NCBI GenBank assembly: GCA_041661405.1
Contig: JBAZUL010000001.1
Coordinates: 92,403 to 156,402 of the forward strand
Length of the DNA stretch: 64,000 nucleotides
Direction of reading: 5' to 3'
From: Patescibacteria group bacterium
Lineage (GTDB): Bacteria > Patescibacteriota > Patescibacteriia > Patescibacteriales > JBAZCA01
The position numbers and the translations under genes are program-made. Below the pieces are notes generated by a model. The model had not been told where the DNA came from, did no database searches, and saw only the letters and a list, made by a program, of their open reading frames with translations. Positions 2,718 to 61,206 of the stretch are shown here, in pieces. Within the stretch, counting starts at the first letter, position 1. Every line of letters starts with the position of its first letter.

Positions 2718-2891
2718 CTAGTACCTGGGGCGGAGCAGGCGAAAATTAATCCCTAACTGCCGGATGCTTTTTGCGAGCTTATTAAAACCGTTTTCCCTCC
2801 GACCGGAATGGATATTTTCATAAAACAGAAAACGGGAAAAAGCGTTCCTCTCTGCTCGGCGTTCATTAATTTTAATTTCTTTGTAGCTCAT
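2718..2891 (-). CDS. Small hypothetical protein (57 aa, below ORF-track cutoff)
   Basis: ATG at 2891-2889 is preceded by GGAGGTG at ideal spacing (aacggaggtgaaaatATG). Hand translation gives MSYKEIKINERRAERNAFSRFLFYENIHSGRRENGFNKLAKSIRQLGINFRLLRPRY. No family recognised. Confidence 0.3.
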   Translation of the reverse strand: MSYKEIKINERRAERNAFSRFLFYENIHSGRRENGFNKLAKSIRQLGINFRLLRPRY

Positions 2892-3095
2892 ATTTTCACC
2901 TCCGTTCTTTTTGCCCCTCGTCAGCTGTGAAATAATATTTACGGCAGAGCGTCTAACTCTAATATGCGGAATATCCGGTAAATATTAATTAATCACGGGG
3001 CAAATTTATAAATAAACTTGAATTAACAATAACAAAGGGTTATTAAAATCAGATTAATTCAGTTTAACGCCTCACAACACATAACAATAAAACAT

Positions 3096-3374: not shown

Positions 3375-3423
3375 ATGCATCCGGTACTATCTAAAAATTA
3401 ATTTTTTTCGTTATCCAATCAAC

Positions 3424-4038
3424 TTAAATCTCTCTTTGTCCCATGAACCGTAAAACCGCCTTTCCGGCTGTTTCGGCGTCGGAACCAAAAGTCATTAAAC
3501 CCTCGCGATGGCCGGCCATTACAAGAATATGTTTGTCCTTTACGTCCGTTTGTTTAAATAATTTTTCTATTTCCCAAGCCATCTCCGGCGTGCCGTAAGC
3601 GGCTTTGGCCGACGTTGTCGGTACTTTATTCTTTAGTTTTTTCCATAATTTTAAATTATGTAAATGCATTACATAATTAATATTTTTATCCATCCGGTAA
3701 ATTATCGCGTGAGACAAAGATTCGGAAGATGCTTTGATTGGCCCGCGGCAGGTTAAACGGTTTTTTTCAAAATTATGACCGACAACCCTCGCATAATGAT
3801 TGGCGCTTAAAATTTTAAATCTGCCGGTTTCACTGCCGGTAATGATAAAATTGCCGGTCTTGCCGGATCTAACGCTCAGATTTCCAAAACCGATGCCGTT
3901 ATTGTATAAGCCGATCAGTCCGAGACCATACAATTTTTTTCGCCACTGGTTAAGCTTTTTTATCTTCGCCGAAGGAACCGGCCTGCCTTTAATCCACTTC
4001 AGCTGGAATTTTATATAACCATCATTGGCGCTTTTCAT
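3424..4038 (-). CDS. Class II aldolase/adducin family protein (MtnB-like dehydratase candidate)
   Basis: GNLSVR, ITGSETG, SSESLSHAIIY and HLH motifs are typical of the class II aldolase fold. There is a 4-bp ATGA overlap with upstream mtnA. Confidence 0.55.
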   Translation of the reverse strand: MKSANDGYIKFQLKWIKGRPVPSAKIKKLNQWRKKLYGLGLIGLYNNGIGFGNLSVRSGKTGNFIITGSETGRFKILSANHYARVVGHNFEKNRLTCRGPIKASSESLSHAIIYRMDKNINYVMHLHNLKLWKKLKNKVPTTSAKAAYGTPEMAWEIEKLFKQTDVKDKHILVMAGHREGLMTFGSDAETAGKAVLRFMGQREI

Positions 4039-5597: not shown

Positions 5598-8552
5598 ATG
5601 TCCGATAAAAAACCAAAACTCTTAATAATTGACGGCAACGCCCTGATCCACCGGAGCTTTCACGCCCTGCCGGAAACTATGATGACTAAAACCGGGGAGC
5701 AAACCAACGCGGTTTACGGTTTTATCATGGTGCTTTTAAAATCTTTAAAAGACATAAAGCCCGAATACGTGGCCTTGACCCTGGATAAAAAAGGCCGGAC
5801 TTTTCGCCACGAAGCCTTTGACGACTACAAAGCCCATAGAGTAGCCGCGCCCATGGAATTATATAAGCAAATCCCGCGGATAAAAGAGCTCGCCCGGGCT
5901 TTTAATATCCCTATCTATGAGATGTCCGGCTACGAGGCAGATGACCTGATCGGGACGATTTCGCGGCATGTTGATGGGAGCGTTGAAAAAATCATCGTAA
6001 CCGGGGACTTGGACACCTTACAGCTCGTAAACGACCACACCAAAGTCTATACCATGAGCCATGGATTGTCGGATAATGTAATTTACGACGAAAAAAAAGT
6101 CCGGGAACGTTTTGACGGACTCGGGCCGGATCAGATGGTAGACTACAAAGGCTTGCGCGGCGACCCGTCGGACAATATTCCGGGCGTGCCGGGCATTGGC
6201 GAAAAAACCGCCATTGAACTATTAACAAAATTTAAAACTTTGGACGGGGTTTATAAATATCTGGAAAACAGACGACAGAAAACAGACGACAGAAAACCTG
6301 CCTCGCCGGCAGGCAAGCAGACGACAGAAAAGTCTGAAGAGATGATTAAACCTCGCATTGCCGAACTTTTGAAAACCCACAAAAAACAAGCTTATTTAAG
6401 CCAGAAACTCGCCCGGATTGAATGCGAAGCCAAAATTGAATTTAGCCTGGACGAAACTAAATTCGGCCGATTTGATAATGAAAAAATCATAAAATTATTC
6501 AGTGAACTGGAATTTAAATCGCTTATCCCAAGAATAAAAGAAATCGGGACTAAGGACGGCGGAATTGCGGCCGGGGATGAAAGTCCGGCTGAAGATAAGT
6601 TTGAAAGGAATAAAAAAACATTCAAATACCGGCTCATAGACAGCGAAAAATCTTTCCAAAAATTCATCATTGCGTTAAAAAAGCAAAAAATATTCAGCCT
6701 GGATACGGAAACTTCGGGCTTTGACGCCCACTGTTCCAGCCTCTTAGGCATCAGCTTCAGCTGGAAAGAGGGCGAAGCCTGGTTTATTAAAGTTAAAAAC
6801 CATGTCAGTAAAGAATGCGTAAAAAGCGCGAGAAACCTTAATTTGTTCGGTAGCCCTGAGAGCGAAGACACTCTTCCGCCGGTTGTTTTAGGAAAAAAAG
6901 GCATTGGCCTGAATAAAATCGTTGACGCGCTAAAGCCGGTTTTAGCCGACCCGAAAATAAAAAAAACCGGCCACAATATCAAATTTGATTACAAAATCCT
7001 AAAAATGTCCGGCATGGAAACAACGGGAATTTATTTTGACACCATGATCGCCTCCTACCTTTTAAATCCCGGCAGCCGCCAGCACGGTCTTGACGCTTTA
7101 ACTCTTTCGGAACTCGGCTTTGAAAAAATTTCTAAAGAAGACCTTTTAGGCAAAGGAAAAATTAAAATCGGCTTTTCGGAGATTAGCGCGGAAAAGCTAA
7201 GCCTTTATTCATGCGAAGACGCTGACTTTACTTTCCGACTTTTTATGAAACTCAAAAAAGAATTACCCGATCGCGGCCAAAAAAAACTTTTCCATGAGAT
7301 TGAAATGCCTTTGGTTCCGATACTTGGGGACATGGAACTCGCCGGCATAAAAATTGACGCGCTGTTTTTAGAAAACATGGGGGAGAAAGTAAAAAAAGAA
7401 ATCGCGAAGCTCAAAGAAAAAATCTGGCAATCAGCCGGCCTTGAATTCAATATCAATTCAACCAAACAGTTAAAAGAAATCCTTTTTGAAAAACTCGCTA
7501 TTTCCACCCTTGGCGTCGGAAAAGGAAAAACCGGCTTTTCCACTTCAGCCGGCGAGCTATTCAAATTAAAGGACAAGCACCCGATTATCCGGCCTTTGAT
7601 GGAATACCGGGAATTAGCCAAACTCCAAAGCACCTATATTAAAGCCCTGCCCGATCTCATTAATGGAAAAACCGGCCGGGTCCATACCAGCTTCAACCAG
7701 TCCGTCACCTCCACCGGCCGGCTCTCCTCAACCGAGCCGAATCTGCAGAACATCCCGATCCGCACTGAACTAGGGCGGGAAATAAGGAAAGCTTTTGTCG
7801 CCGAACCCGGCTTTAAGCTCCTTTCGGCCGATTACTCGCAGATTGAGCTCCGGCTCGCGGCCCACGCTTCCGGCGACAAAAAAATGCTTAAGGCTTTTCG
7901 CGACGGATTAGATATCCATTCAGCCACGGCCGCGGAAATAAACAACCTGGCGCTTGATAAGGTAACGCACGAAATGCGGCGCGAAGCCAAAGCCGTAAAC
8001 TTCGGCATAATCTACGGCCAAGGGCCGCGCGGCCTTTCCGAATCAGCCGACATCCCTTACGACCGGGCTAGAGAATTTATCAGCGGATATTTTAACGTTT
8101 ACGCGGACGTAAAAAAATATATTGACGAAAGCATAGAAAGCGCGCGGGTAAAAGGCTTTGCCGAAACCATGTTCGGCCGGAAAAGATACCTTCCGGAAAT
8201 AAATTCCCCGGCCATACAAATTAAAAAAGCGGCCGAGCGCATGGCCATCAACACTCCGCTTCAGGGCGCGGCCGCCGACATGATTAAAATCGCCATGATT
8301 AATATCTCGCGAATGATAAACGAATTTAATGCGGATGGCGGCGAATCATCCTCGCGCGAGGAAAACAAGGAAATCCGGATGCTTCTGCAGGTCCATGACG
8401 AGTTGCTTTTTGAAGTCCGAGAGGATAAAATCCAGGAGTGGGCGAAAAAGATCAAAGCCGCCATGGAGGGCGTCGCCAGACTTAAAGTGCCAATTATCGC
8501 CGATCTTAAAACCGGAAAAAATTGGGGCGAGATGGAAAAGATAGAAATATGA
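5598..8552 (+). CDS. polA: DNA polymerase I (5' nuclease + 3'-5' exonuclease-like + polymerase domains)
   Basis: N-terminal LLIIDGNALIHRSFHA and GVPGIGEKTA, then polymerase motifs DYSQIELR, RREAKAVNFGIIYG and QVHDELLFE. Confidence 0.95.
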   Translation: MSDKKPKLLIIDGNALIHRSFHALPETMMTKTGEQTNAVYGFIMVLLKSLKDIKPEYVALTLDKKGRTFRHEAFDDYKAHRVAAPMELYKQIPRIKELARAFNIPIYEMSGYEADDLIGTISRHVDGSVEKIIVTGDLDTLQLVNDHTKVYTMSHGLSDNVIYDEKKVRERFDGLGPDQMVDYKGLRGDPSDNIPGVPGIGEKTAIELLTKFKTLDGVYKYLENRRQKTDDRKPASPAGKQTTEKSEEMIKPRIAELLKTHKKQAYLSQKLARIECEAKIEFSLDETKFGRFDNEKIIKLFSELEFKSLIPRIKEIGTKDGGIAAGDESPAEDKFERNKKTFKYRLIDSEKSFQKFIIALKKQKIFSLDTETSGFDAHCSSLLGISFSWKEGEAWFIKVKNHVSKECVKSARNLNLFGSPESEDTLPPVVLGKKGIGLNKIVDALKPVLADPKIKKTGHNIKFDYKILKMSGMETTGIYFDTMIASYLLNPGSRQHGLDALTLSELGFEKISKEDLLGKGKIKIGFSEISAEKLSLYSCEDADFTFRLFMKLKKELPDRGQKKLFHEIEMPLVPILGDMELAGIKIDALFLENMGEKVKKEIAKLKEKIWQSAGLEFNINSTKQLKEILFEKLAISTLGVGKGKTGFSTSAGELFKLKDKHPIIRPLMEYRELAKLQSTYIKALPDLINGKTGRVHTSFNQSVTSTGRLSSTEPNLQNIPIRTELGREIRKAFVAEPGFKLLSADYSQIELRLAAHASGDKKMLKAFRDGLDIHSATAAEINNLALDKVTHEMRREAKAVNFGIIYGQGPRGLSESADIPYDRAREFISGYFNVYADVKKYIDESIESARVKGFAETMFGRKRYLPEINSPAIQIKKAAERMAINTPLQGAAADMIKIAMINISRMINEFNADGGESSSREENKEIRMLLQVHDELLFEVREDKIQEWAKKIKAAMEGVARLKVPIIADLKTGKNWGEMEKIEI
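6269..6331 (+). repeat. In-frame insert: 3x CAGACGACAGAAAA plus palindrome CCTGCC-TCGCC-GGCAGG
   Basis: The 14-mer lies at 6269-6282, 6283-6296 and 6318-6331. The palindrome lies at 6297-6313. The tract encodes NRRQKTDDRKPASPAGKQTTEK in the linker after the 5' nuclease domain. Confidence 0.9.
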
Positions 8553-9904
8553 AGTTAAACCAACTGAGCAATAAAAGAAAATCTAAAGCGAAGACTTTTG
8601 TTTTTGACAGTTTTTTTCTGGATAAAAACAAAGGTGAAATAAAATTTCATTACAATCTGGGAAGTAATTATCGTTTCACGGAAACCTTAAGGCTTACTGA
8701 TAAAAAAATTAACTGGCAAAAAGTAAATAATGAAGCGCTTAACCAAACCTTATTCAGCCTGCATCTCATCATCGGCATAAGCTACTGGAAAACCTTTTGC
8801 CCGAAAAAAATCATTATTAATTCCGGTAATTTAACCAAAAAACAAGCTGAATTTTGGAACGGAGTTTACGGGATCGGGCTGGGAGAATTTTACTACAAAA
8901 ATAAAATTGACTTCAGGGAGCTCGTAAAATTCCCTTACAAAAATAACCAATCGGCGTCCGTCCGCCTGAAAATAAAAAACCGGGCGCTAGTGCCTTTGGG
9001 AGGAGGAAAAGACTCTATCGCGGCGGCGGAAATTTTAAAAGAAAATAATATTGATTTTACATTATTCAGTTTGCGGAACAGTAAAATACATAAAAACGTC
9101 ACTAGAATTATCGGCAAACCGAGAATCATGATTGACAGGGAAATGGACAAAAATTTTTTTGAAATAAGCAAAAAAGGCTATCAGGGTCATATTCCCGTTT
9201 CATTTATTTTTTCCTTTACCGCTCTCTTGGCGGCTATTTTGTACGACTATAAATACATAATTTTTGCCAATGAACACAGCTCCAATTTCGGCAATGTTAA
9301 ATATCTTGGTCATAATATTAATCACCAATATTCAAAATCGCTCGAAGCCGAAAGAAATTTCATCAATTACGCGCATAGCTTCATCACTCCCGATATTCAC
9401 CCTTTTAGCCTGCTGAGGCCTTTTTCCGAATTAAAAATCGTTCAAATTTTCTCCAAATATAAAAAGTATTTTTCTTCGTTTTCCAGTTGCAGTAAAAGTC
9501 TGAAATTCATGAATCCTGACGCCCGAAGATGGTGCGGCGAATGCGCTAAATGCGCCTTTGTTTTTTCTCAGCTCGCCGCCTTCCTGTCAAAAGCGGAGCT
9601 TAAGAAAATCTTTGGCAAAAACCTTTACGCCGATAAAAAACTGTTGACTCTTTATCTTGAATTGCTCGGCGAAAAGGATATCAAGCCTTTTGACTGCGTT
9701 GGAACGCCGGAGGAAGTAAAAGCGGCGATGATAATCGCGCAGGAAAATAAAGAGTTTTTGAATGACTATATAATCAGGCATTTCCGCGATAATATAATGC
9801 CCCGGATAAAGAATCAAAAAGCGCTGGTTAAAAAAGCCCTAAACGTCCGCGGAAGCAATTGCGCCCCAAAAAAATTTCAATCAATAATTAACCAGATAAA
9901 ATAA
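8549..9904 (+). CDS. PP-loop (adenine nucleotide alpha-hydrolase-like) protein; candidate MurL-type UDP-MurNAc-L-Ala-L-Glu epimerase
   Basis: PLGGGKDS resembles the SGGxDS PP-loop, and there is a C-terminal CGECAKCAF cysteine cluster. The ATGA start overlaps the polA stop, and the gene lies 3 nt upstream of murD. The MurL assignment is by context only. Confidence 0.45.
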   Translation: MKLNQLSNKRKSKAKTFVFDSFFLDKNKGEIKFHYNLGSNYRFTETLRLTDKKINWQKVNNEALNQTLFSLHLIIGISYWKTFCPKKIIINSGNLTKKQAEFWNGVYGIGLGEFYYKNKIDFRELVKFPYKNNQSASVRLKIKNRALVPLGGGKDSIAAAEILKENNIDFTLFSLRNSKIHKNVTRIIGKPRIMIDREMDKNFFEISKKGYQGHIPVSFIFSFTALLAAILYDYKYIIFANEHSSNFGNVKYLGHNINHQYSKSLEAERNFINYAHSFITPDIHPFSLLRPFSELKIVQIFSKYKKYFSSFSSCSKSLKFMNPDARRWCGECAKCAFVFSQLAAFLSKAELKKIFGKNLYADKKLLTLYLELLGEKDIKPFDCVGTPEEVKAAMIIAQENKEFLNDYIIRHFRDNIMPRIKNQKALVKKALNVRGSNCAPKKFQSIINQIK

Positions 9905-32862: not shown

Positions 32863-34584
32863 CTACATCTCCTCCAAAGTCTCAATGCCTAAAATATAGA
32901 GTCCGTTTTTTATAACTTGGTTGGCGGATTTAAGCAAAACCAGGCGGGCGGCTCTGTCTTTTGGATCGGCCTTTAATACCGGCACGTCGTGGTAATAATC
33001 ATTAACCGCCTGCGCGAGTTCAAATAAATATTTGGCGATTTCGGCCGGGTCATAATTGGCGCCGGCTTTTTCTATGATTTCTGGGTATTTGGCGAGCTTA
33101 AGGATAATCGCGTGTTCTTTTGGGTGGGACAGGTTTTTTAAATCAGCCTTGATTTTCTTGACTGACAAAGTTTTTGCTTTCCGGAAGATGCTTTCAATCC
33201 TCGCGAAAGTGTATTGAATGTACGGGCCGCTCGCGCCGGAAAGGTTTATAGACTCGTCAATGTCAAAAACGATTTCTTTGCCGATGCTTGATTTTAAAAT
33301 TGAGTATTTTACCGCCGAGAGGCTTACCTTCCTTATCACCTCTTTAGTATCGGCCGCGTTTTTATTTTCTTTGGTGATGGCGGCGATTTTTTCCGCCACG
33401 GTATCTAAAAGCCATTCCCCCAAGACGACATTTCCGAGGCGCGAACTCATTTTACCGTCTTTTAATCTTACCCAGCCGTATGGCAGATGGACTTCTTTGT
33501 CTTTTAGTTTGGGAAAAACCTCTTCAATGGCTTTGAAGATCACTTTAAAATATTCGTTTTGTTCGGTCGCGACGATGTGGATGATTTTTTCCGGTTTATA
33601 TTCTTTATATTGCAGTTCAGCCAGTCCCATATCCTTGCCCTCGTAAGTTGGAAAGCCTTCGGAATTGATGAATACACGGTTATGGAGACCGTAATTTTCG
33701 CCCGGGAAGATTATGGCGCCGTCGCTTTTTATAAATATATTGGTTTTAATATTGGCCAAGACGATTTTTTTGCCGCTTTCCTGGGTTTGCGATTCAAAGT
33801 AAAGCCGGTCAAATTTCGTGTCCATTCTTTCGTAGATTTTATCAAAATATTCCAGACTCCAGGCCCGGGTGGTCTCATAAACCTCCATAATCTTTTTGTC
33901 CCGGGAATAAATGAGTTTGTTAATTTCAATTATTTCGATTTTTGCTTCCGGATTTTCTTCATAGTTTTTACTGCCCAAAGCATATGCCTGGCCGAGGAAT
34001 TTAACTTTTTCAGCAATTGGTTTTTTTGCCGCTCCTTCGTATTGGTCATTAAGCCGGTTTATTCCCCAAAGGCACTTGGCGATATGCAACCCGACATCGC
34101 CCTGGTAGTTAGCGCGTATCACCTTATATCCGCTGACTCCCATGATCCGGGCGACAGCCTCGCCGGTGATAATGTTTCTTAAATGCCCGATATGGAAAGC
34201 TTTATGGGTGTTCGGGTGGGCGTATTCCAGCATGATTTTTCCCCCTTTACCGCTCTTATTCGCGCCGTAGTTATTTTTTTCTTTGGAGATTTCTTTTAAG
34301 GTGATTTCAGCGAGTTCAAGTTTGTTTAAAGTAAAATTCAAGTACGGTCCAACGGCTTTTGCTTCGTTTACCGTCTTGTCCGCGACAATTTTTTCCGCGA
34401 GAACTTTTGCCGCTTCAATCGGATTTATTTTTAATTCTTTGGCAATGTTAAAGCAGGCCAGGCTTAAATCGCCGAACTGGGAATTTTGGGGATATATAAA
34501 ATCGTCCGGCTTAACAAAATTGTTTTTTGTTTCCGCGTTAACCAATTCTGCAAGATAAATTTTTATTTTGTTTAGCGGATTCAT
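32863..34584 (-). CDS. argS: Arginine--tRNA ligase
   Basis: HPNTHKAFHIGHLRN (HIGH), a class I core, and a DALR-type C-terminus. Confidence 0.93.
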   Translation of the reverse strand: MNPLNKIKIYLAELVNAETKNNFVKPDDFIYPQNSQFGDLSLACFNIAKELKINPIEAAKVLAEKIVADKTVNEAKAVGPYLNFTLNKLELAEITLKEISKEKNNYGANKSGKGGKIMLEYAHPNTHKAFHIGHLRNIITGEAVARIMGVSGYKVIRANYQGDVGLHIAKCLWGINRLNDQYEGAAKKPIAEKVKFLGQAYALGSKNYEENPEAKIEIIEINKLIYSRDKKIMEVYETTRAWSLEYFDKIYERMDTKFDRLYFESQTQESGKKIVLANIKTNIFIKSDGAIIFPGENYGLHNRVFINSEGFPTYEGKDMGLAELQYKEYKPEKIIHIVATEQNEYFKVIFKAIEEVFPKLKDKEVHLPYGWVRLKDGKMSSRLGNVVLGEWLLDTVAEKIAAITKENKNAADTKEVIRKVSLSAVKYSILKSSIGKEIVFDIDESINLSGASGPYIQYTFARIESIFRKAKTLSVKKIKADLKNLSHPKEHAIILKLAKYPEIIEKAGANYDPAEIAKYLFELAQAVNDYYHDVPVLKADPKDRAARLVLLKSANQVIKNGLYILGIETLEEM

Positions 34585-34587
34585 AAT

Positions 34588-35802
34588 TTATGAAAGGGAA
34601 ATTTTTATAAATTGCCTTTTACCCCTCTGGATAATCATCCCGTCTTTCAGTTCAATGCTTTTAAAAGGGTCTCTTACGGCTTCGCCGCTGATTTTTATTC
34701 CTCCCTGCTCAATAAGCCTTCGAGCCTCCCCCTTGCTAACGGATAAATTTGTTTTTACGAGCAACTCAATAATGTTCCATGTTCCATGTTCCATGTTCCA
34801 TTCTTTAATTTCATCCGGAATTTCCTTTTTTTGGACGGTTTTTATAAAATGCTTTTCGGCTTTTTTCGCCTTCCCTTCCCTGTGTATTATTTTAGTGATT
34901 TCCAGAGCCAGTTTCATTTTTAAATCGCGCGGATTAACGCCCGAATCCTTCAGCTGTTCCTGGATTTTTTTAATTTCATTAAAAGAAATTTTAGTCGCGA
35001 GTTCAAAAGCGGCGCCGATTACGCCGTCCGGCCAGCTCATTACCTGGCCGTAGACGTTTTCCGGGGTTTCGCTCATGAATATGGCGTTGCCTTCGGTTTT
35101 CCCCATTTTTACTCCACCCGGATCAGCGAGTAATTTTGTCGTTAAAACGTATTTTTCCTTATTTTTCATGGTTCGCAGGAGATCGCGTCCGCAGAGCATG
35201 TTAAACATCTGGTCGTTCCCGCCGATTTCCAGATCAACATCCATGGCGACTGAATCATAGCCCTGGGCGATTGGATAAAGGAACTCGTGGAAGTGAATCG
35301 GCTTTTCCTCTTTCATTCTAACTTGGAACATATCGCGCTGAATCATCTGCTGAACCGTAAAATTGGAGGTGATTTCAATTAAATCCTTAAAAGTAATTTT
35401 GTCCGACCATTTGGAATTGTACATCACCTTGGCCGGATTCTCGCCCTTGAAATTCAGGTAGGCCGCGGCCTGTTTTTTATAGTTTTTGGCGTTAGCGCGC
35501 ACCTCAACACGGGTAAGTTTTTTCCGGGTGGCTTTTTTGTCGGTCGGGTCGCCGATCATGCCGGTAAAATCGCCTATTAGAAAAATAACTTCATGACCGA
35601 GCTCCTGGAACTGCCTTAATTTATTTAACTGGATGGCGTTGCCGATATGGAGAGCCGGAGCGCTCGGATCAAAACCGCAATAAAGTCGGATTCTTTGGCC
35701 GGACATAAGGACTTTTTCCAAGGCCTCATAAGACGGGAAAATTTTTTCCACTCCCCGGGTTAATACTTCCTTAATTTTTTCCTGGTTAGTTATAGTTGCC
35801 AT
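34588..35802 (-). CDS. tyrS: Tyrosine--tRNA ligase
   Basis: GFDPSAPALHIGN (HIGH), KMGKTEGN (KMSKS) and a C-terminal S4 domain. Confidence 0.93.
   Translation of the reverse strand: MATITNQEKIKEVLTRGVEKIFPSYEALEKVLMSGQRIRLYCGFDPSAPALHIGNAIQLNKLRQFQELGHEVIFLIGDFTGMIGDPTDKKATRKKLTRVEVRANAKNYKKQAAAYLNFKGENPAKVMYNSKWSDKITFKDLIEITSNFTVQQMIQRDMFQVRMKEEKPIHFHEFLYPIAQGYDSVAMDVDLEIGGNDQMFNMLCGRDLLRTMKNKEKYVLTTKLLADPGGVKMGKTEGNAIFMSETPENVYGQVMSWPDGVIGAAFELATKISFNEIKKIQEQLKDSGVNPRDLKMKLALEITKIIHREGKAKKAEKHFIKTVQKKEIPDEIKEWNMEHGTWNIIELLVKTNLSVSKGEARRLIEQGGIKISGEAVRDPFKSIELKDGMIIQRGKRQFIKISLS
34772..34799. repeat. Perfect 7-nt tandem repeat (ATGTTCC)x4 inside tyrS
   Basis: Read directly. It encodes EWNMEHGTWNI just before the S4 domain. 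Confidence 0.9.
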
Positions 35803-37451: not shown

Positions 37452-38822
37452 ATGATGAAAAAAATTATTATACCTATCAAAGGCATGCACTGCAAATCCT
37501 GCGAAATGCTTATTGAGGACAAACTCTCAAGAATCAGCGGCGTAAAGGAATCAAAAATTAACCATAAAACCGGCTCGGCGGAAATTTATTATGGAGCCGC
37601 TAAGCCTAAAGGCGCTGAAATTGAAGAAGCCATTAGTTCTGCCGGCTACGCGATCGGCGAGGAAAAAAAACCGGGCTGGATAAATAAAAACCCTGGCGAC
37701 TATAAAGATTTAGGTATTGCTTTTGTTTTCTTATTGGGGATATATTTTGTCCTGAAAAGTTTCGGGCTGACAAATATTTCCATAAGCGGCGCGGGCGAGG
37801 ATCCGGAAAGTTTCGGCGTAGTGCTCTTAGTCGGCTTGACCGCCGGATTTTCTTCTTGCATGGCCTTGGTCGGCGGCCTGGTTCTCGGAGCGTCAACCAA
37901 ATTCGCCGAAAAGCATCCGGGGGCGAGCGCCCTGGAAAAGTTTAAACCGCATATATTTTTTAATCTGGGGAGGATTATCGGCTTTGCCGCGCTCGGGGGA
38001 GCCTTGGGCGCGCTCGGCTCCATCTTCCAGTTTTCCAGTTTCAGTCTTGGGATTCTTACTATTCTCGTCGGTCTCGTCATGCTCGTAATGGGACTGCAAC
38101 TTATTAATATCTTCCCCCGTCTAAGTAATATTAAGATTGCCTTGCCAAAAGCCGTGAGCCGGGCGCTTGGCATCAAAGGCGATAGCGGTTATAGTCATAA
38201 AGGCGCGGCGCTATTAGGCGCGTTTACTTTTTTTCTCCCTTGCGGCTTTACCCAGGCCATGCAATTATTTGCCGTTTCCACCGGTAATTTTTTAGTCGGC
38301 GCTTTGGTGATGGGAATTTTCGCGATCGGCACCGCGCCCGGGCTTTTAGGGATTGGAGGCCTTACATCAATTGTCAAAGGAGTTTTTGCCAAAAGATTTT
38401 TTAAGCTGGCCGGAATCCTGGTTATTATTTTCGCTTTCTTTAACTTTACTAGCGGCTGGAATTTAACCGGTATTTCTATCGGTTCGTCAGACGAAAGAAC
38501 CAATGCCAATGCCGAGACTAGCGATCCCAACGTTAGTCTGGAAGACGGCATCCAGATCGTCCGGATGGCCGAAGTCGCGAACGGCTACGAGCCGAACATA
38601 TTTACCATTAAAAAAGGTGTGCCGGTTAAATGGATTATTGACGCGAAGGCTCCTTATTCGTGCGCTTCTTCTTTAGTCCTGCCGAAACAAAACATCAGAA
38701 AGCAATTAAAAGCCGGAGAAAATATCATTGAGTTCACGCCGACTGAAATCGGAGCTTTGAAATTTTCCTGTTCCATGGGCATGTACACCGGAGTATTTAA
38801 TGTTATTGATGATAAAAAATAA
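37452..38822 (+). CDS. HMA domain - DsbD_2/TauE-like permease - cupredoxin-like domain fusion
   Basis: N-terminal GMHCKSCEMLIE, a polytopic core with FFLPCGFTQAMQLF, and a C-terminal beta domain with conserved Cys/Met (YSCASSL, FSCSMGMYTG). Confidence 0.7.
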   Translation: MMKKIIIPIKGMHCKSCEMLIEDKLSRISGVKESKINHKTGSAEIYYGAAKPKGAEIEEAISSAGYAIGEEKKPGWINKNPGDYKDLGIAFVFLLGIYFVLKSFGLTNISISGAGEDPESFGVVLLVGLTAGFSSCMALVGGLVLGASTKFAEKHPGASALEKFKPHIFFNLGRIIGFAALGGALGALGSIFQFSSFSLGILTILVGLVMLVMGLQLINIFPRLSNIKIALPKAVSRALGIKGDSGYSHKGAALLGAFTFFLPCGFTQAMQLFAVSTGNFLVGALVMGIFAIGTAPGLLGIGGLTSIVKGVFAKRFFKLAGILVIIFAFFNFTSGWNLTGISIGSSDERTNANAETSDPNVSLEDGIQIVRMAEVANGYEPNIFTIKKGVPVKWIIDAKAPYSCASSLVLPKQNIRKQLKAGENIIEFTPTEIGALKFSCSMGMYTGVFNVIDDKK

Positions 38823-39065: not shown

Positions 39066-41432
39066 ATGAAAACTTTAAAATTAGACGTAAGCGGCATGCA
39101 CTGCGCGTCTTGCGCGGCGATTATTGAGCGCAGTCTGAAAAAAACGGCTGGCGTGAAAAACGCTAGCGTGAATCTGGCTTCGGAAAAAGCCACGGTTATT
39201 TTTGATGAAAAAAAGCTGGATGCCGAATTAATAATCAAAGCGATAGAAAAGGCCGGGTACGGCGCGAAGTCCCCCGGCGGCGAAAAAGAAGAAGCGAAAA
39301 GTAAAAGAGAAGAATTAAAAAGCCAGTTTAATAAACTTTTAGCCAGCTTGATTTTATCCTTGCCGATGTTTTATTTCATGCTCATGGATTTTTTGCCCGC
39401 CTTGCCTGGCCGCGCCTCCCTGCCTTACCATGGCGTTATTTCCCTGCTTCTCACCCTTCCGATCCAATTCGTTATCGGCGCCCGATTTTACAAGGGCATG
39501 TGGTCGGCGCTCCGAATGAAAACTTTTAACATGGATTCGCTCGTTGCCATCGGCACTTCCACAGCTTTTTTTTACAGCTTGGCGAACCTCTTGATTTACG
39601 CGACAAAAACCGGTTCAGTAATCGGCCAAAACGGGGAGATGGTGCCGGATCTATATTTTGAAACTGCGGCCTTCTTAATCACTTTCGTGATACTGGGCAA
39701 ATGGCTGGAAACGCGGACTAAAGGAAAAACTTCGGATGCCATAAAAAAGCTCATGGGGCTAAAGGCGAAAACCGCGAGAGTACTTAGCGGTAGCGGCGCG
39801 GCTGATTTGCCGATTGAAGCCGTGAAAAAAGGCGATATAATAATTGTCCGGCCCGGGGAAAGCATCCCGGTTGACGGTAAAATTACTAAAGGCCATTCTT
39901 CGGTTGATGAATCCATGCTCTCCGGCGAATCCATTCCGGTTGAGAAAAACGCCGGCGACATAGTTATTGGCGGGACGATCAACAAAACCGGAAGTTTTGA
40001 ATTTAGCGTCTCAAGAGTAGGCGAAGAAACAACTTTAGCGCAAATTATCCGGGTGGTGGAAGAAGCCCAGGGTTCAAAAGCGCCGATTCAGGGTTTTGCC
40101 GACCGGATTTCGGCCTATTTTGTTCCGGCCGTGATTGGCATCGCAATCCTCACTTTCCTCGTTTGGTACTTTTTATTAAGCGCGACAATCGCTTTTTCAT
40201 TAATGGCTTTTACCGCTGTTATTGTTATTGCCTGTCCTTGCGCTTTGGGGCTCGCTACCCCGACCTCGCTCATGGTCGGAACCGGCAAGGGCGCTCAATA
40301 CGGAATTCTTATTAAAGGCGGAGAACCGCTGGAAGCGGCGCAAGGCATCAAGGCAATCGTTTTTGATAAAACCGGAACAATTACCAAAGGCAAGCCGGAA
40401 GTGACTGACGTGATTAAATTCCAAATCCCAAATTCCCTGCCTCGCCGGCCGGCAGGCAAATTCCAAAATTTGGATATTATTAAAATTGCCGCGGCTTTGG
40501 AAAATAATTCCGAACATCCGCTAGCAGAGGCTATAATTAGAAAGTCCAAAGAGGAAAACTTGGAAGTATTGCCAGTAGATAATTTTATGGCCATTCCCGG
40601 CCAGGGCGTAACCGGAGAAGTCGGCGGAAAAAAATATTATCTTGGCAACCGGAAATTGGCGGTTGAAGCGACCAAAGTGTCTTTAGGAAAATTCGAAGCC
40701 GAAATATCAAAGCTGGAAAGCGAGGGCAAAACAGTGATGGTTCTGACTGACGAAAAGGAAATTCTAGGCGCCGTAGCAGTCGCTGATACGATTCGGGAAA
40801 CTTCGCGCGAAGCGATTGAAAAGTTAAAGAAAATGGGGCTGGAAGTATATATGATTACGGGTGACAATGAAAAAACCGCCAAAGCCATAGCGAGTCAGGC
40901 CGGGATTGACAGCGTGTTGTCAGAAGTCCTGCCCGAAGACAAAGCCAGCGAAATTAAAAAATTACAGCTGGCCGGAAAAAAAGTCGCGATGGTCGGCGAC
41001 GGGATAAATGACGCTCCGGCTTTGGCGAGAGCCGATTTAGGCATTGCCATGGGCGGCGGCACGGACGTCGCCATGGAAACCGGCGGGATAATTATTATGC
41101 GAAACGACTTACGGGACGTTGTCACCGCCTTTGAGCTCTCCCGCGAAACCATGGTGAAAATAAAACAGAACATGTTTTTCGCCCTGTTCTATAACGTCAT
41201 CGGCATTCCGATTGCCGCCCGGGTGTTTATGGGCTTTAGCCTGGTCTTAAAGCCGGAACTGGCCGGCCTCGCTATGGCCTTAAGCTCCGTATCGGTAGTT
41301 TCTAATTCCCTTCTTCTCCGCCTATTCCGACCCGGAAAAAGAAATTATTTATCGCTTGCCGCGCCGATTATCATGGTCATCCTTTTTAGCTTTCTCTTTT
41401 ACGAATTCGCCAGGTTCAGTTCCGGGATGTAA
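39066..41432 (+). CDS. copA: Copper-translocating P1B-type ATPase
   Basis: [19 protein letters not shown], the CPC in TM6, DKTGTIT, SEHPLA, and [10 protein letters not shown]. Confidence 0.95.
40416..40473 (+). repeat. In-frame insert: palindrome CCTGCCTCGCCGGCCGGCAGG flanked by AAATTCCAAA-type words
   Basis: The core at 40436-40456 shares CCTGCCTCGCCGG..GGCAGGCAA with polA 6297-6316. It encodes [13 protein letters not shown] between DKTGT..VTD and SEHPLA. Confidence 0.85.
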
Positions 41433-47423: not shown

Positions 47424-47502
47424 ACTTAGGAAGTAAGGAATAAACAGTAAATAGTAAACAGATTTTCAGATGCTCTGTTTACTGTTATCTATTTACTGTT
47501 TA

Positions 47503-48918
47503 CTATTTAATATAGTTAAGCGGATTATATTTGGTTCCATTGATGATTATTTCAAAATGCAGATGCGATCCGGTTGACCAGCCGGTAGAACCCATGGCGC
47601 CGATAGTTTCTCCCTTTGAGACTTGCTGGCCTTTCTTGGTGAAGAATTTGGAAAGGTGGGCGTAGCGGGTTTTCTTTCCGCCGCCGTGGTCAATAACAAT
47701 CTGGTTGCCATAGCCGGTTCCCCAGCCAATAAACTCAATGGTTCCGGCGTCAGCCGCGTAAATCGGGGTACCGATTTTGTTGGCAATATCCACCGCGGTA
47801 TGCCGCCAGGAATAATATTGGGTAATCCGGTAGCCGGCGGTCGGCCAGTTCATCTTGTTGCCGGATATCGGTTTTGAGTTGCCGGGCTTGATAATCTTTC
47901 CGAGGTCTTTTAAGACGGAAATGCCCGAATAAGACGGCTGGCGGTAAGCGACCGCTTCAATTCTCCGGCCGCCCGGAATGATTAATTTTTGTCCGGCCTG
48001 AAGAGTCCCTCCGGCCAGCTTGTTGGCCTTCGCGATTTCATCCTGACTCACTCCATATTTATTGGCTATGTTAACCAGCGTGTCGCCTCGCGCCACTTTA
48101 TAGGAAATGCCGGATGTCGGGAGAATATTGAGCTTATCGCCGGGCCGGATAATGCTGTAAGCGGTGAGGTCATTTTCCCAAAGAATAGTGTTAACGCTCA
48201 CGGCAAATTTTTGGGCGATAGTTGAGACCGTATCGCCTTCTTCCACGGCGTAAGTCATGGCGCTTTCGCGGAGCCGGATTATTTTGTCCGTAGAAACCAT
48301 CTCCGGCTTTTGCAAAGCCGTTCCGCCCTGGTTAAGGACGGCTAGTTCGTCTTCGGCGTTTAAATCGTCTTCGGTGAGCGTCGGCTGGGAGCGGAAACTT
48401 GAAAGGTTTTCAAGATAGCTTTGCTGAATCGGCGATATGGTTACTTCCTGGTCAAAGAATTCTTCAATCAGCCGTTCGTCTTCAACCGTTCCAAACTCAT
48501 TTTGGATTAAGCTGGAAAGGATGGTTTGTCCCGAACCCGCGCCCTGGCTTACGGCGGACGTGGGTTCGGTTATATTAAAAAAAACAATAGCCAGGGAAAT
48601 AAAAACCATTAAAAGGTGAACCATCTTTTGGTTTAAAAAACTCCAGGCTGGAGAGCCTGACCAGCCACTTTTTTTTGTGATATAGAGATATAGGCGGTAT
48701 ATTTTTACCACTAATTTGTAAAAAATAAATTTTAGGCCCGGCCGGCCGGCTGTTTGGTAAAAATAAAAAACGCTTCTGGCTATGACGTTTATTGTGAGTT
48801 TGCCCAGATTTAAAATCCGGATCAGCAATTCAATAAAAAAAATGATTACGCTTTTTAACAAACGGCTTTTTTCCTTTCTTTTTTGAGGTTTGTAATATCG
48901 GATATAATCGATTGCCAA
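47503..48918 (-). CDS. LysM-repeat M23 family peptidoglycan endopeptidase
   Basis: LysM repeats (YAVEEGDTVSTIAQKF, YKVARGDTLVNIANKYGV) and the M23 motifs HTAVDIA and GSTGWSTGSHLHFEI. Confidence 0.88.
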   Translation of the reverse strand: MAIDYIRYYKPQKRKEKSRLLKSVIIFFIELLIRILNLGKLTINVIARSVFYFYQTAGRPGLKFIFYKLVVKIYRLYLYITKKSGWSGSPAWSFLNQKMVHLLMVFISLAIVFFNITEPTSAVSQGAGSGQTILSSLIQNEFGTVEDERLIEEFFDQEVTISPIQQSYLENLSSFRSQPTLTEDDLNAEDELAVLNQGGTALQKPEMVSTDKIIRLRESAMTYAVEEGDTVSTIAQKFAVSVNTILWENDLTAYSIIRPGDKLNILPTSGISYKVARGDTLVNIANKYGVSQDEIAKANKLAGGTLQAGQKLIIPGGRRIEAVAYRQPSYSGISVLKDLGKIIKPGNSKPISGNKMNWPTAGYRITQYYSWRHTAVDIANKIGTPIYAADAGTIEFIGWGTGYGNQIVIDHGGGKKTRYAHLSKFFTKKGQQVSKGETIGAMGSTGWSTGSHLHFEIIINGTKYNPLNYIK

Positions 48919-58370: not shown

Positions 58371-59768
58371 ATGTTTAGAAAAATTATTCCGTTTTTATTG
58401 CTTTTTATTTTTCTTTTAACCTCGGGTTTTGGTTGCGCGTTCATCGGCACGGAAACGCAAAACGCCATGAAGCCGATCAGTTTAAAATACTGGCGGGTTT
58501 TTGACGGGGAAGACGCTTTTGATGAAATAATAAAAAATTATAAGCTTCTTCATCCTTATATAAGCATTGAATACCGGAAACTCCGGTACGCCGAGTATGA
58601 AAAAGAACTTTTGGAAGCAATGGCCGAAGACAAAGGGCCGGACATTTTTTCCATCAGCAACTCCTGGGTCGGAAAATATGAGTCAAAAATTGAGACTCTG
58701 CCGGAAAAAATAACCATGGTTTATCCGGTGGAAAAAGGCACTCTGAAAAAAGAGATAATACCTGAACTTCGGACTGCCAAAACCATGAGTCTGAAGGACT
58801 TTAAAGATCAATTTGTTGACGTGGTGATTGATGACGCCGTAATAAACGCTAAAGACGGGGAAACCGGAAAACTAAAAGAAACGATAATGGGAATGCCGCT
58901 TTCGGTTGACGTTCTGGCGGTTTACTATAACCGCGATCTGCTTAATAATTCCGGCATAGCCGTCCCGCCGGCGTATTGGAATAAGAGTTTTCAGGAGGCA
59001 ATAAAAGGATTAACCAAGCAGGATATAAACGGCCAGATAATACAATCGGGCATTTCGCTCGGCGGCGGTAAAAATATAGAACGTTCAGGCGATATCCTGG
59101 CCGCGCTGATGTTGCAAAACGGCGCCGAATTGATGATTGACAACCGGGTGACTTTTGACCGGATACCGGCGGCTTTTGCCGGCGAAAAGTACAATCCGGG
59201 AATTGAGGCGCTTCGATTCTACACGGATTTTTCCAACCCGGCCAAAGAAGTCTATACCTGGAACAAGGACATAACCGGGTCGCTTCAAATGTTTTTATCC
59301 GGCCGGCTGGCCATGATGATCGGCTATGCCTATCATCTGCCGACCATCAAGTCCCAGGCCCCGAAGCTAAAAATCGGTATTGCCAAACTGCCGCAGATAG
59401 AAGGGAGCGGCCAAACCGTAAACTTTGCCAATTATTGGCTTGAGGTAGTGTCAAAAAAGAGTCAGTATAAAGATGAAGCTTGGGATTTCATCCAGTTCGC
59501 GGCTAAAGCGGAGAACGCGAAAACTTATCTCGCGAAGACCGGCAAGCCGCCGGCTCTGCGCTCGCTTATTGATGAGATGAAAGAAGCGGAAGAAACCGGA
59601 ATTTTTTCCGATGAAGTGTTAACCGCGAAAAGCTGGTATCATGGAAAAGATGCCCTGGCCGCCGATGAAATAATGGCCGCGTTGATTGACAATACGGCTG
59701 CGGGAGCCGATAAGATTGAAAATCTTATGAGCCAGGCGGCGACCAAGGTTCAGCAGACAATAGACTAA
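58371..59768 (+). CDS. ABC transporter extracellular solute-binding lipoprotein (family 1, sugar-type); no permease or ATPase adjacent
   Basis: Lipobox LTSGFGC, and a size and pattern (GPDIFSISNSW, MPLSVDVLAVYYN) typical of SBP_bac_1. Confidence 0.7.
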   Translation: MFRKIIPFLLLFIFLLTSGFGCAFIGTETQNAMKPISLKYWRVFDGEDAFDEIIKNYKLLHPYISIEYRKLRYAEYEKELLEAMAEDKGPDIFSISNSWVGKYESKIETLPEKITMVYPVEKGTLKKEIIPELRTAKTMSLKDFKDQFVDVVIDDAVINAKDGETGKLKETIMGMPLSVDVLAVYYNRDLLNNSGIAVPPAYWNKSFQEAIKGLTKQDINGQIIQSGISLGGGKNIERSGDILAALMLQNGAELMIDNRVTFDRIPAAFAGEKYNPGIEALRFYTDFSNPAKEVYTWNKDITGSLQMFLSGRLAMMIGYAYHLPTIKSQAPKLKIGIAKLPQIEGSGQTVNFANYWLEVVSKKSQYKDEAWDFIQFAAKAENAKTYLAKTGKPPALRSLIDEMKEAEETGIFSDEVLTAKSWYHGKDALAADEIMAALIDNTAAGADKIENLMSQAATKVQQTID

Positions 59769-59882
59769 ATTTCCAATTTTCAATAAAATGGTCAATGCTT
59801 AAATGTCCAATATCTTAAATGGGTTAGTTGCTTTAAATATTGAGCTTTGAGAATCGGGAATTAGGAATTTATAGATAGCGTT

Positions 59883-60464
59883 ATGAAAAAATATAAACAT
59901 TTAGTCTTTCTGTTTTCTGTTTTCTGTTTTCTGTTTTCTGTTAATATCTGTTCGGCGGCGATAATTGATGGGCTGATTTGCGCGACTGATACAACCGGGG
60001 CGTCAAATTGCAGTTTAAACGATTTTGTCCGTATTGGTACTAACGTTGTCCAGCTGATTTTCGGGCTGGCCGGTTCTTTGGCCTTGCTGTTCTTTATCTA
60101 CGGGGGTATAATGTGGGTGATTTCGGGCGGCAATCCGGACCGGGTTAAAAAGGGGCTGGATGCCATAAAGAACGCGGTAATCGGTCTAATAATAATTTTC
60201 GCGAGCTACATGATAATAAACTTTGTCATGACTTCGCTCGGGTATAAGATGAACGGCGGAGTCTGGAATACCACGCCGTCGGGTTCAACTACCACAGGTA
60301 TTACGCCGCCGCCGACTAGCCCTACCCCCACGCCGCCGCAGGGAGGATGTTGTCTAATATCCGATGCCGGCAGGTTTAATGAAACCTGCTCTAATAGCAG
60401 TTGTCCGGCGCAGTGCCCTAAAATCAATTGTCTACCCGTTAGCTGTCCTTGTGACTCTGATTAA
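59883..60464 (+). CDS. TrbC/VirB2-like pilin-family membrane protein with Pro/Thr linker and Cys-rich C-terminal tail
   Basis: A signal peptide, then two TM helices with GGIMWVISGGNPDRVKKGLDAIKNAVIGLIIIF (pilin-like), and a tail GGCCLISDAGRFNETCSNSSCPAQCPKINCLPVSCPCDSD. Confidence 0.6.
   Translation: MKKYKHLVFLFSVFCFLFSVNICSAAIIDGLICATDTTGASNCSLNDFVRIGTNVVQLIFGLAGSLALLFFIYGGIMWVISGGNPDRVKKGLDAIKNAVIGLIIIFASYMIINFVMTSLGYKMNGGVWNTTPSGSTTTGITPPPTSPTPTPPQGGCCLISDAGRFNETCSNSSCPAQCPKINCLPVSCPCDSD
59907..59940. repeat. 7-nt tandem repeat (TTTTCTG)x4 plus a 6/7 partial unit inside the pilin-like signal peptide
   Basis: Read directly: tttctg then ttttctg x4. It encodes FLFSVFCFLFSV. Confidence 0.9.
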
Positions 60465-60540
60465 TTTTTGGCGTATTCGTTTATTGTAAAAAATAAAGAG
60501 GTAATACGAGATTTCAAGGTTTTTTCCAACTTCAATTTCT

Positions 60541-61206
60541 ATGGTTAGTTTTAAAGCGACAAAAATTTTAGTCCACTCCGAGGTTTTAGCCGAAGAGTTT
60601 AAAAAGGCGCGCCGCGCCCGAGGTTTAGGCGTTCCCGAGGCGGCTCGGAAATCGCAGATCGGAATTAAATATATTAAAGCCATAGAAGCCGGCAGGCTGG
60701 AGCTTCTGCCGGCCGGAATTTACCGGAAGAATTTTTTAAGGGAATACGCCGATTTTCTCGGCTATGATTCAAGGGAGCTTTTAAAAAATTTTCCCGAAAA
60801 TGATAATGATAGAGAAACCGGCAATCCTTTTTCCTGCCGCGTCGCACGAACCAGAACTATTATTATCCCGAAGATAATGAGGGGGATCGGGGTCGCCGCC
60901 ATTGCCGTAGTATGCCTTTTTTACCTGCAGACCCGTTTTTCCGTAGTAGTTTCGCCACCAAGCCTATCAATCGCCAATCCGCCCGAAGACATGAAGCTTA
61001 ATTCCCGGGAAATAAACATCATCGGCACGACCGATCCGGAGACAGAGGTAACTATTAATGACAACTTGGTTTTGACCGGCGTTAACGGCGATTTTTCCAA
61101 AATAATTAATCTGCGCGAAGGGATAAATATTATCACCATAATCGCGAAAAATAAATTCGGTCCGGAAAAGAAAATTGTTAAGCAGATATTAGTAAGCAAA
61201 AATTGA
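60541..61206 (+). CDS. RodZ-like cytoskeleton protein (HTH + TM + C-terminal beta domain)
   Basis: HTH RGLGVPEAARKSQIGIKYIKAIEAG, YRKNFLREYADFLG, a single TM helix, and an Ig-like C-terminus. Confidence 0.7.
   Translation: MVSFKATKILVHSEVLAEEFKKARRARGLGVPEAARKSQIGIKYIKAIEAGRLELLPAGIYRKNFLREYADFLGYDSRELLKNFPENDNDRETGNPFSCRVARTRTIIIPKIMRGIGVAAIAVVCLFYLQTRFSVVVSPPSLSIANPPEDMKLNSREINIIGTTDPETEVTINDNLVLTGVNGDFSKIINLREGINIITIIAKNKFGPEKKIVKQILVSKN

Follow-up and report, generated by a model that had tools for sequence, protein, structure and literature searches.

Why would a predicted pilin gene carry, in the very core of its signal peptide, a tandem repeat whose unit is not a multiple of three bases? 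We pursued this question for a VirB2-like pilin-family gene in a 64-kb stretch of DNA from a Patescibacteria group bacterium (hereafter "the window", meaning the whole stretch). An earlier note on this DNA had proposed that the gene has the architecture of a contingency (phase-variable) locus, in which gain or loss of a single repeat unit would switch a surface structure off or on. Here, we report that the pilin array is a genuine microsatellite, specific to this gene and still changing in evolution, and that its most likely functional role—a reading we hold at about even confidence—would be that of a frameshift (contingency) switch resembling the one in the opa genes of Neisseria.

The array starts with TTTCTG, continues with four perfect TTTTCTG units (59913–59940), and ends in TT. 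It encodes FLFSVFCFLFSV, the hydrophobic core of the signal peptide, and all three of its reading frames are open and hydrophobic. Both Tandem Repeats Finder and a comparison with shuffled sequence bore out the heptamer tract that the earlier note had described at the 5′ end of the gene: allowing up to two mismatches, the pattern (TTTTCTG)x3 had four matches in the window and none in 100 dinucleotide-preserving shuffles. Throughout the whole 64 kb, just two perfect arrays with a period of at least 5 and at least 3 copies were present, namely the pilin array and one in tyrS. A separate assembly (L001, ENA analysis ERZ27249449; 99.945% identical, with 5 mismatches and no gap over 9118 nt) carried the pilin array at unchanged length.

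We then considered the same gene in 163 loci, that is, 160 related loci from metagenomes and GTDB species representatives together with L001–L003. A perfect tandem array was defined as spanning at least 21 nt with at least 2.5 copies within the first 105 nt of the open reading frame (ORF). By this definition, 18 of 132 unique orthologues, each of them next to the same solute-binding protein (SBP) gene, bore a perfect array in the signal-peptide region (four of period 7, 13 of period 8, and one of period 16), built from at least nine unit sequences, including TTTTCTG, TGTTATG, TTTTTGTG, TTGTTTTA, TTGTTATA, and TTATTTTA. Control regions were free of them: no array was found in the two membrane helices of the pilin gene itself (0/137 and 0/135), none in the signal peptide of the adjacent SBP from the same genomes (0/55, Fisher p 0.002; 0/99 by a run-length criterion), and none in the other PF18895 paralogues of these loci (0/142, p 1e-6), the last being a weaker control drawn partly from other lineages. 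Perfect arrays of period 7 or 8 were also present within the 105 nt 5′ of the pilin ATG in eight of 128 loci. Taken over all loci, 28 of the 53 unique perfect arrays lay within 105 nt of the pilin ATG, against an expectation of 4% (binomial p 4e-25). When simple sequence repeats (SSRs) are enriched at the N-termini of proteins, this is accepted as a mark of phase variation (PMC3315296).

Of the upstream arrays, those of the AATTACG type directly abut the pilin start codon in L004, L169, L094 (2815–2887), and L096. Their copy number ranges from about three imperfect units to 10.4 perfect ones, the latter as (AATTACG)x10.4 in L094, and arrays in this position could tune expression.

The conservation of the array across species is a matter of DNA rather than of protein. 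In L002 (3029–3067) and L003 (3031–3069), both syntenic orthologues from JGI 3300033153, the same perfect TTTTCTG array is present with 5.6 units each, while the proteins share only 46% (L002) and 43% (L003) identity with that of the window outside the array. All 11 array codons are identical to those of the window in both species, with zero synonymous variation, as opposed to a codon identity outside the array of 0.19–0.20 overall and of 0.39–0.40 among conserved residues. The earlier note had asked whether the tract might be conserved at the amino-acid level with synonymous variation; we found the opposite, namely identity at the DNA level at about 45% protein identity, which argues that amino-acid-level selection is insufficient to account for the array. 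A recent transfer of the 5′ end was considered as the source of the array common to the window, L002, and L003, and was rejected on the grounds that the flanking leader codons differ (TAT/TAC, TTT/TTC, ATT/ATC).

The closest relative, L004 (87% amino-acid identity outside the array), has a decayed array, with 0 of 11 array codons in common with the window. When laid out in heptads, close relatives have five units each, in the same register as in the window, and three of them carry derived units side by side: TCATCTG twice in L169 (TTCTG/TCATCTG/TCATCTG/TTATTTG/TCTTCTG), TTCTCTC twice in L005 (TTCTC/TTCTCTC/TTCTCTC/TTTTCTC/CTTTCTT), and CTTTCTG twice in L168 (GTTTTCTG/CTTTCTG/CTTTCT). Because these derived units adjoin identical copies, we conclude that units have been both duplicated and lost, and that slippage has gone on acting at a constant number of five.

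Comparison of near-identical loci adds snapshots of recent change. L079 and L093 have SBP genes that are 99.5% identical and downstream sequences that are 97.8% identical, and a different octamer is expanded in each leader at equal total length. As a separate observation on this pair (at ~2890–3060), the intergenic sequence between the SBP and pilin genes has been replaced by unrelated sequence, and the leader octamer types differ. In L039 and L040 (99.8% identical), the intergenic array just 5′ of the SBP gene (~1360–1395) has one AATATCC unit more in one locus than in the other, with a compensating 7-base difference, and the SBP gene as a result starts with TTG instead of ATG. A survey of indels in 15 pairs of near-identical loci turned up some of 7 and 8 bases, which were not dominant, in a sample too small to gauge SSR instability. 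The 3′ end of the gene is affected as well: between L013 and L015 (98.8% identical), a 7-base and a 6-base indel at ~3387–3440 rewrite the pilin C-terminus by a frameshift followed by partial compensation. Finally, L168 (contig CAYPBE010000021.1) stops within intergenic sequence rich in heptamers, 140 nt 5′ of the pilin ATG, which hints that this region breaks assemblies.

What would such changes do within the leader? Computed translations put the gene out of frame upon gain or loss of one unit, just as the earlier note had expected: removal of one unit leaves 24 codons and of two units 15, while addition of one leaves 22 and of two 31. Changes by three units keep the frame, giving an h-region of 7 residues at two units and of 21 residues at eight. 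Five units are thus probably the sole functional ON state, which would account for a length that hardly varies among the window, L002, L003, and the decayed relatives, and would not require the array itself to be stable. In the proposed mechanism, replication slippage by one or two units would keep the leader and truncate the protein after 15–31 codons (OFF), and the frame would be restored only at unit numbers equal to 5 modulo 3. Within a population, the pilin surface protein would then be lost and regained stochastically and reversibly, as with the CTCTT leader repeat of Neisseria opa.

Two further considerations favour such a switch. Since an array of 7- or 8-base units within an ORF can grow, or become homogeneous again, only by way of out-of-frame states or a three-unit jump, OFF states must be at least survivable. 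Moreover, pure tolerance is an insufficient explanation, because no array is ever found in the leader of the adjacent SBP gene. That slippage is frequent enough, that OFF cells exist and are useful, and that the protein is surface-exposed with a role for its tail are parts of this reading that we infer.

Several findings weigh against it. No OFF allele was found among the 18 array-bearing orthologues, all of which are in frame (in consensus assemblies, where minority alleles are invisible). When the 163 loci were screened for pilin cores with no leader in frame, the only cases were truncated contigs and L018 (2265–2876), whose protein starts with MKFALAQS... and has no hydrophobic leader core owing to an in-frame loss of the h-region, and a homologue search revealed no truncated near-identical pilin protein. 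The unit number is equal in the near-identical assembly L001, and five units are few beside classic contingency tracts. In gonococci, by contrast, the opa genes in frame average only 1.7 per isolate, fewer than the 3.4 that chance would give (PMC13183285). The housekeeping surroundings of the pilin gene, conserved in nearly all relatives, suggest that the cell ordinarily requires it. Periods 7 and 8 dominate intergenic arrays, too, and as this bias is genome-wide, it speaks for a generating process or a sequence-level role rather than for frameshift selection. Lastly, a perfect heptamer array is retained at 83% nucleotide identity in tyrS, so that, given the essential nature of that gene, an array alone is no proof of a switch. 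The contingency-locus architecture claimed by the earlier note is supported, and more strongly than its author could know: an SSR does lie in the 5′ part of the ORF, its unit changes are truncating, and it is gene-enriched and recurrent. Switching itself stays a proposal, as all 18 sampled alleles are in frame.

The strongest competitor is a non-adaptive one—possible, if short of probable—in which these genomes make arrays of 7–8 bases everywhere, the h-region is simply the single coding site that tolerates them, and frameshifts are deleterious and purged. Much of the evidence just listed fits this explanation, namely the in-frame state of 18/18 pilin arrays, the unchanged length in the near-identical assembly, and the dominance of periods 7 and 8 in intergenic DNA; besides, a T-rich unit yields hydrophobic residues whichever frame is read, and the signal peptide in question is a fast-evolving one. 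Arrays also occur in essential tyrS and, as a 14-mer, in the linker of polA. The tyrS array, a caveat that the earlier note had rightly raised, is (ATGTTCC)x4.3 at 34772–34801; with tyrS on the minus strand, it reads (GGAACAT)x4.3 on the coding strand and encodes WNMEHGTWN. It is perfect in L165 and L166, at 83% nucleotide identity, but in L164, which is closer (92%), three single bases have changed, and relatives at 83–85% protein identity lack the WNMEHGTWN motif; with about six synonymous sites, its retention could be due to chance. What the non-adaptive explanation struggles with is specificity and turnover. The SBP signal peptide should be equally permissive, yet had no array by either criterion (0/55 and 0/99), nor did the other PF18895 paralogues (0/142); growth of a 7- or 8-base array passes through out-of-frame intermediates, and OFF is thus at least tolerated; and a perfect array at about 45% protein identity requires continued turnover or selection.

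As to the wider distribution of such repeats, the perfect arrays in L001–L163 are nearly all of period 7 (22), 8 (20), or 16 (4), intergenic DNA being no different, and no perfect array of period 5, 6, or 12 was found among these loci. The polA array at 6264–6297 is a perfect 14-mer present 2.4 times (GAAAACAGACGACA); it is in frame and falls in a variable linker of DNA polymerase I, and its complement contains the pilin heptamer TTTTCTG alternating with TCGTCTG.

A second explanation, which we consider improbable, is that selection acts on the repeat as an element of the DNA or RNA and not on its mutability. It might serve as a U-rich signal in the mRNA, used in membrane targeting or to pace translation, or as a binding array akin to the heptamer arrays of nearby intergenic regions. 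The nucleotide-level conservation with zero synonymous change fits such an element, heptamer arrays are found at the start codon or in the 5′ region of many orthologues (the eight of 128 loci and the 10.4-unit array of L094 described above), and heptamer arrays also build intergenic hairpins. On the other hand, the use of at least nine units and two periods across lineages, together with the decay in close relatives, implies that no particular repeat sequence is required. The hairpins merit a note of their own. One, at 47441–47509 in the window, has arms made of the heptamer arrays (TAAACAG)x3 and (CTGTTTA)x5, with a predicted free energy of −25.6 kcal/mol and a z-score of −3.8, and lies between two minus-strand genes, downstream of a LysM-M23 peptidase gene; comparable array-built hairpins are found 5′ of the pilin gene in L003 and L093. 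Finally, that the tract is a chance low-complexity stretch reflecting nothing more than the T-richness of signal-peptide codons, or else an assembly artefact, can be set aside almost entirely, as 0/100 shuffles match it, it is identical in an independent assembly and in two other species, and its 36 nt are shorter than typical short sequencing reads.

If a frameshift switch does operate at this locus, what would it switch? The identification of the product as a pilin was upheld by a PF18895 (T4SS_pilin) match of 49.2 bits over residues 52–115 (gathering cut-off 26.6, E 5.8e-13) and by the public record of the exact protein, P0001, named 'MAG: pilin [Patescibacteria group bacterium]'. PF18895 was present in 39/39 homologues found. 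The earlier note had named a TrbC/VirB2-like core; PF04956 (TrbC/VirB2) scored 18.0 bits, under its cut-off of 27.9. NCBIfam added a sub-threshold match to a pilin-like family of mycoplasma integrative and conjugative elements. A Foldseek search of the pilin model against the PDB gave nothing at E ≤0.001 (the conjugation pilus of Aeropyrum pernix, 8dfu, ranked 11th with E 3.1), and a profile search of PDB sequences with the pilin returned no relevant match.

Read from the sequence, the predicted signal peptide consists of an n-region MKKYKH, an h-region LVFLFSVFCFLFSV, and a c-region NICSA, and the two membrane helices are joined by a basic loop, SGGNPDRVKKG. The cleavage site probably precedes A26. 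The c-region motif S-x-N-x-C-x-A is kept across the pilin alignment, in which C33 is nearly invariant and the C43 column is Cys in most rows (blocks judged by eye). A lipoprotein leader was considered and rejected, VNIC being incompatible with a lipobox. AlphaFold2, run on a 20-sequence alignment, predicted a leader helix followed by helices 45–80 and 85–118 at block-mean pLDDT (predicted local distance difference test) values of ~67–85. The positive-inside rule is an established principle of membrane topology; with the basic inter-helix loop, it would place both ends of the mature protein—Cys33, Cys43, and the whole C-terminal extension included—outside the cell. A scan of 59600–60700 for promoters and terminators gave match numbers near those from shuffles.

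The C-terminal extension was already delineated in the earlier note as a Pro/Thr linker and a 40-residue tail, and this quotation of the sequence was accurate; its count of nine Cys residues was not, as the tail has eight, nor is a Cys-rich tail unusual for a pilin of this kind. The loci contain 290 unique PF18895 ORFs: 34 are extended at the C-terminus by at least 30 residues (29 of these with at least four Cys), and another 54 have a long N-terminal head (50 of these with at least four Cys). Cys-rich, outward-facing add-ons are thus a habit of the family. A loose GCC...C...C pattern, judged by eye, is common to several of the listed tails, and the pilin of L018 has one of 110 residues with 12 Cys. 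Close orthologues have either no tail (P0003, P0005, P0006) or a different one (P0002, P0004). Turning to the window's own tail, a word-indexed search yielded no candidate homologue, an exhaustive phmmer search over 1.84 billion representatives yielded just two spurious matches to repeat proteins that match by composition, and BLASTP against the tail of P0002 was not significant (E 3.7); these homologue searches gave no evidence of a known knot or metal-binding domain. The structure prediction proposed in the earlier note was carried out with AlphaFold2 and gave no confident fold: residues 132–193 have pLDDT values below 50, and the tail itself values below 40, with no confident structure after residue 131, which renders a fold search of the tail meaningless. 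Our best reading is that the tail is a surface tip that evolves fast and is stabilised by disulfides; it may serve to recognise a ligand or a host, with metal binding as a possible alternative. Elsewhere in the window, an HMA-DsbD_2 fusion (37452–38822) and an HMA-bearing P-type ATPase (39066–41432) are encoded side by side, a pair that may be tied to extracellular thiol or metal chemistry where the Cys-rich pilin tail would sit.

The genomic context identifies the gene as a conserved one (Table 1). The neighbourhood consists of SMC, ComM-like, SBP, the pilin itself, RodZ-like HTH_25, RecA, EF-P, S18, and SSB, with dnaA located 33 kb from the pilin gene. In 159 of the 163 loci, the pilin gene adjoins the SBP gene and/or the RodZ-like gene, arguing that it is one conserved orthologue of a broad clade and not the cargo of a conjugative element; records of this clade are labelled Falkowbacteria, Magasanikbacteria, Parcubacteria, Uhrbacteria, and others. 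None of the 16 ORFs of at least 400 residues in the 64-kb window encodes a VirB4-type ATPase, and linkage to virB4 or a type IV secretion system (T4SS) is absent there. Ten of these ORFs were scanned against Pfam (that at 8522–9904 without a match), five were identified otherwise, and the one at 32863–34584 was called ArgRS by synteny with L165. The order orphan SBP, PF18895 pilin, and usually RodZ-like is kept over many Patescibacteria lineages, some of which have two to three extra pilin paralogues after the pilin, and no ABC permease or ATPase was seen adjoining the SBP gene in these loci.

Table 1. Features of the pilin locus, ordered by position in the window.
Feature	Position	Strand	Basis
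Upstream neighbour: family-1 solute-binding protein (SBP) with signal peptide	58371..59768	+	Pfam SBP_bac_1 and SBP_bac_8, on the L001 gene
Intergenic region 5′ of the pilin gene, imperfect 7–8-base repeats TTTCCAATTTTCAAT; GGGAATTAGGAATTTA	59769..59882	+	Read from sequence
VirB2-like (PF18895) pilin-family gene, 193 aa	59883..60464	+	ORF with ATG start, Pfam
Predicted Sec signal peptide, residues 1–25	59883..59957	+	Read from sequence
Perfect heptanucleotide array, 5.1 units	59907..59942	+	Tandem Repeats Finder, period 7, 100% matches
Short, predicted extracytoplasmic N-terminal segment of the mature protein, with Cys33 and Cys43	59958..60014	+	Alignment; topology inferred
Two-helix membrane hairpin, residues 45–80 and 85–118 (PF18895 core)	60015..60236	+	AlphaFold2, Pfam
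Ser/Thr/Pro-rich linker, residues 119–153	60237..60341	+	Read from sequence
40-aa tail with 8 Cys, predicted extracytoplasmic, lineage-specific	60342..60461	+	Cys count, null homologue searches
Downstream neighbour: RodZ-like HTH_25 membrane protein	60541..61206	+	Conserved across related loci

Extending the frameshift switch from this gene to the clade, we tentatively propose, at somewhat less than even confidence, that the SBP-adjacent pilin is a true contingency gene throughout, its 5′ end being kept hypermutable by 7/8-base microsatellites either in the leader core or upstream. If true, populations of ultra-small, probably host-dependent cells would continually give rise to cells with the pilin ON and cells with it OFF. 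The Candidate Phyla Radiation (CPR) would thereby gain its first phase-variation system, which may be linked to the genome-wide process that generates 7/8-base arrays. Patescibacteria account for much of bacterial diversity, and most of them are thought to live attached to other cells, and their surface variation is little understood. The microsatellite hot spot turns this matter into a concrete hypothesis—bet-hedging of a surface appendage in uncultured organisms—and the state of the array provides a marker for re-mining existing metagenomes. The bias toward periods of 7 and 8 bases raises a further question about replication or repair in reduced genomes.

How does this locus relate to known systems? 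Both the pilin family and the proposed type of mechanism, the coding repeat in the opa leader, are already known. An opa-type leader repeat in Patescibacteria, its units of 7 or 8 bases, its clade-wide recurrence at one pilin orthologue, and its always-ON pattern appear to be undescribed; our searches of the literature turned up no account of SSR phase variation in Patescibacteria, and the nearest case was a gene with a hypervariable in-frame 9-mer repeat in a Gracilibacterium (PMC6851277).

VirB2-like pilins of Patescibacteria belong to the same Pfam family and phylum as the window pilin. According to the available text of a recent preprint, those of PF18895/PF04956 in 1,948 CPR assemblies are small, highly variable, and often arrayed; it also summarises a genetic study in which Patescibacteria VirB2-like pilins and T4SS genes were essential for host-dependent growth, and an earlier report that a pilin array of Southlakia epibionticum is essential (bioRxiv 10.1101/2025.01.22.634366). 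Diversification is attributed there to arrays of paralogues, and that text makes no mention of SSRs (bioRxiv 10.1101/2025.01.22.634366). The window copy differs in that it is not beside virB4 and has instead the neighbourhood SBP, pilin, RodZ-like, and recA.

Among heptanucleotide repeats in other bacteria, those of Haemophilus influenzae hmw1A and hmw2A grade transcription or mRNA processing and cause no shift of the reading frame. These 7-bp repeats lie in the promoter or 5′ untranslated region (PMC8262952, PMC12721329). As SSRs 5′ of an adhesin gene, they are comparable to the upstream heptamer arrays in L094, L042, and L079, but they are outside the ORF, whereas the window pilin array is inside it. 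A genome-wide preference for 7-base tandem units, mostly intergenic, is shared with the STRR repeats of cyanobacteria, reportedly described by Mazel et al. in 1990. We know of no function for STRRs, nor are they, to our knowledge, known to encode signal peptides. They are heptanucleotide tandem repeats (PMC4748335), and the likeness is one of description only; phylum and unit sequences differ.

The closest parallel is with opa of Neisseria, whose CTCTT leader repeat is said to have had its classic description in Stern et al. in 1986. The opa unit has 5 bases and is present in many more copies, compared with 7 (or 8) bases and about five units here, and opa is a multigene family that is mostly out of frame, unlike the single conserved pilin gene with sampled alleles that are all in frame. 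Opa is an outer-membrane beta-barrel and the pilin an unrelated VirB2-like protein, for which Pfam reports just PF18895 and PF04956 and no homology to Opa; the likeness is thus in mechanism only, with switching here a proposal. What the two have in common is, nonetheless, the design of the leader: in a surface protein's signal peptide, the hydrophobic core holds a pyrimidine-rich repeat with a unit that is not a multiple of three, which is hydrophobic in all its frames and shifts the frame of the mature protein when its unit number changes (PMC13183285).

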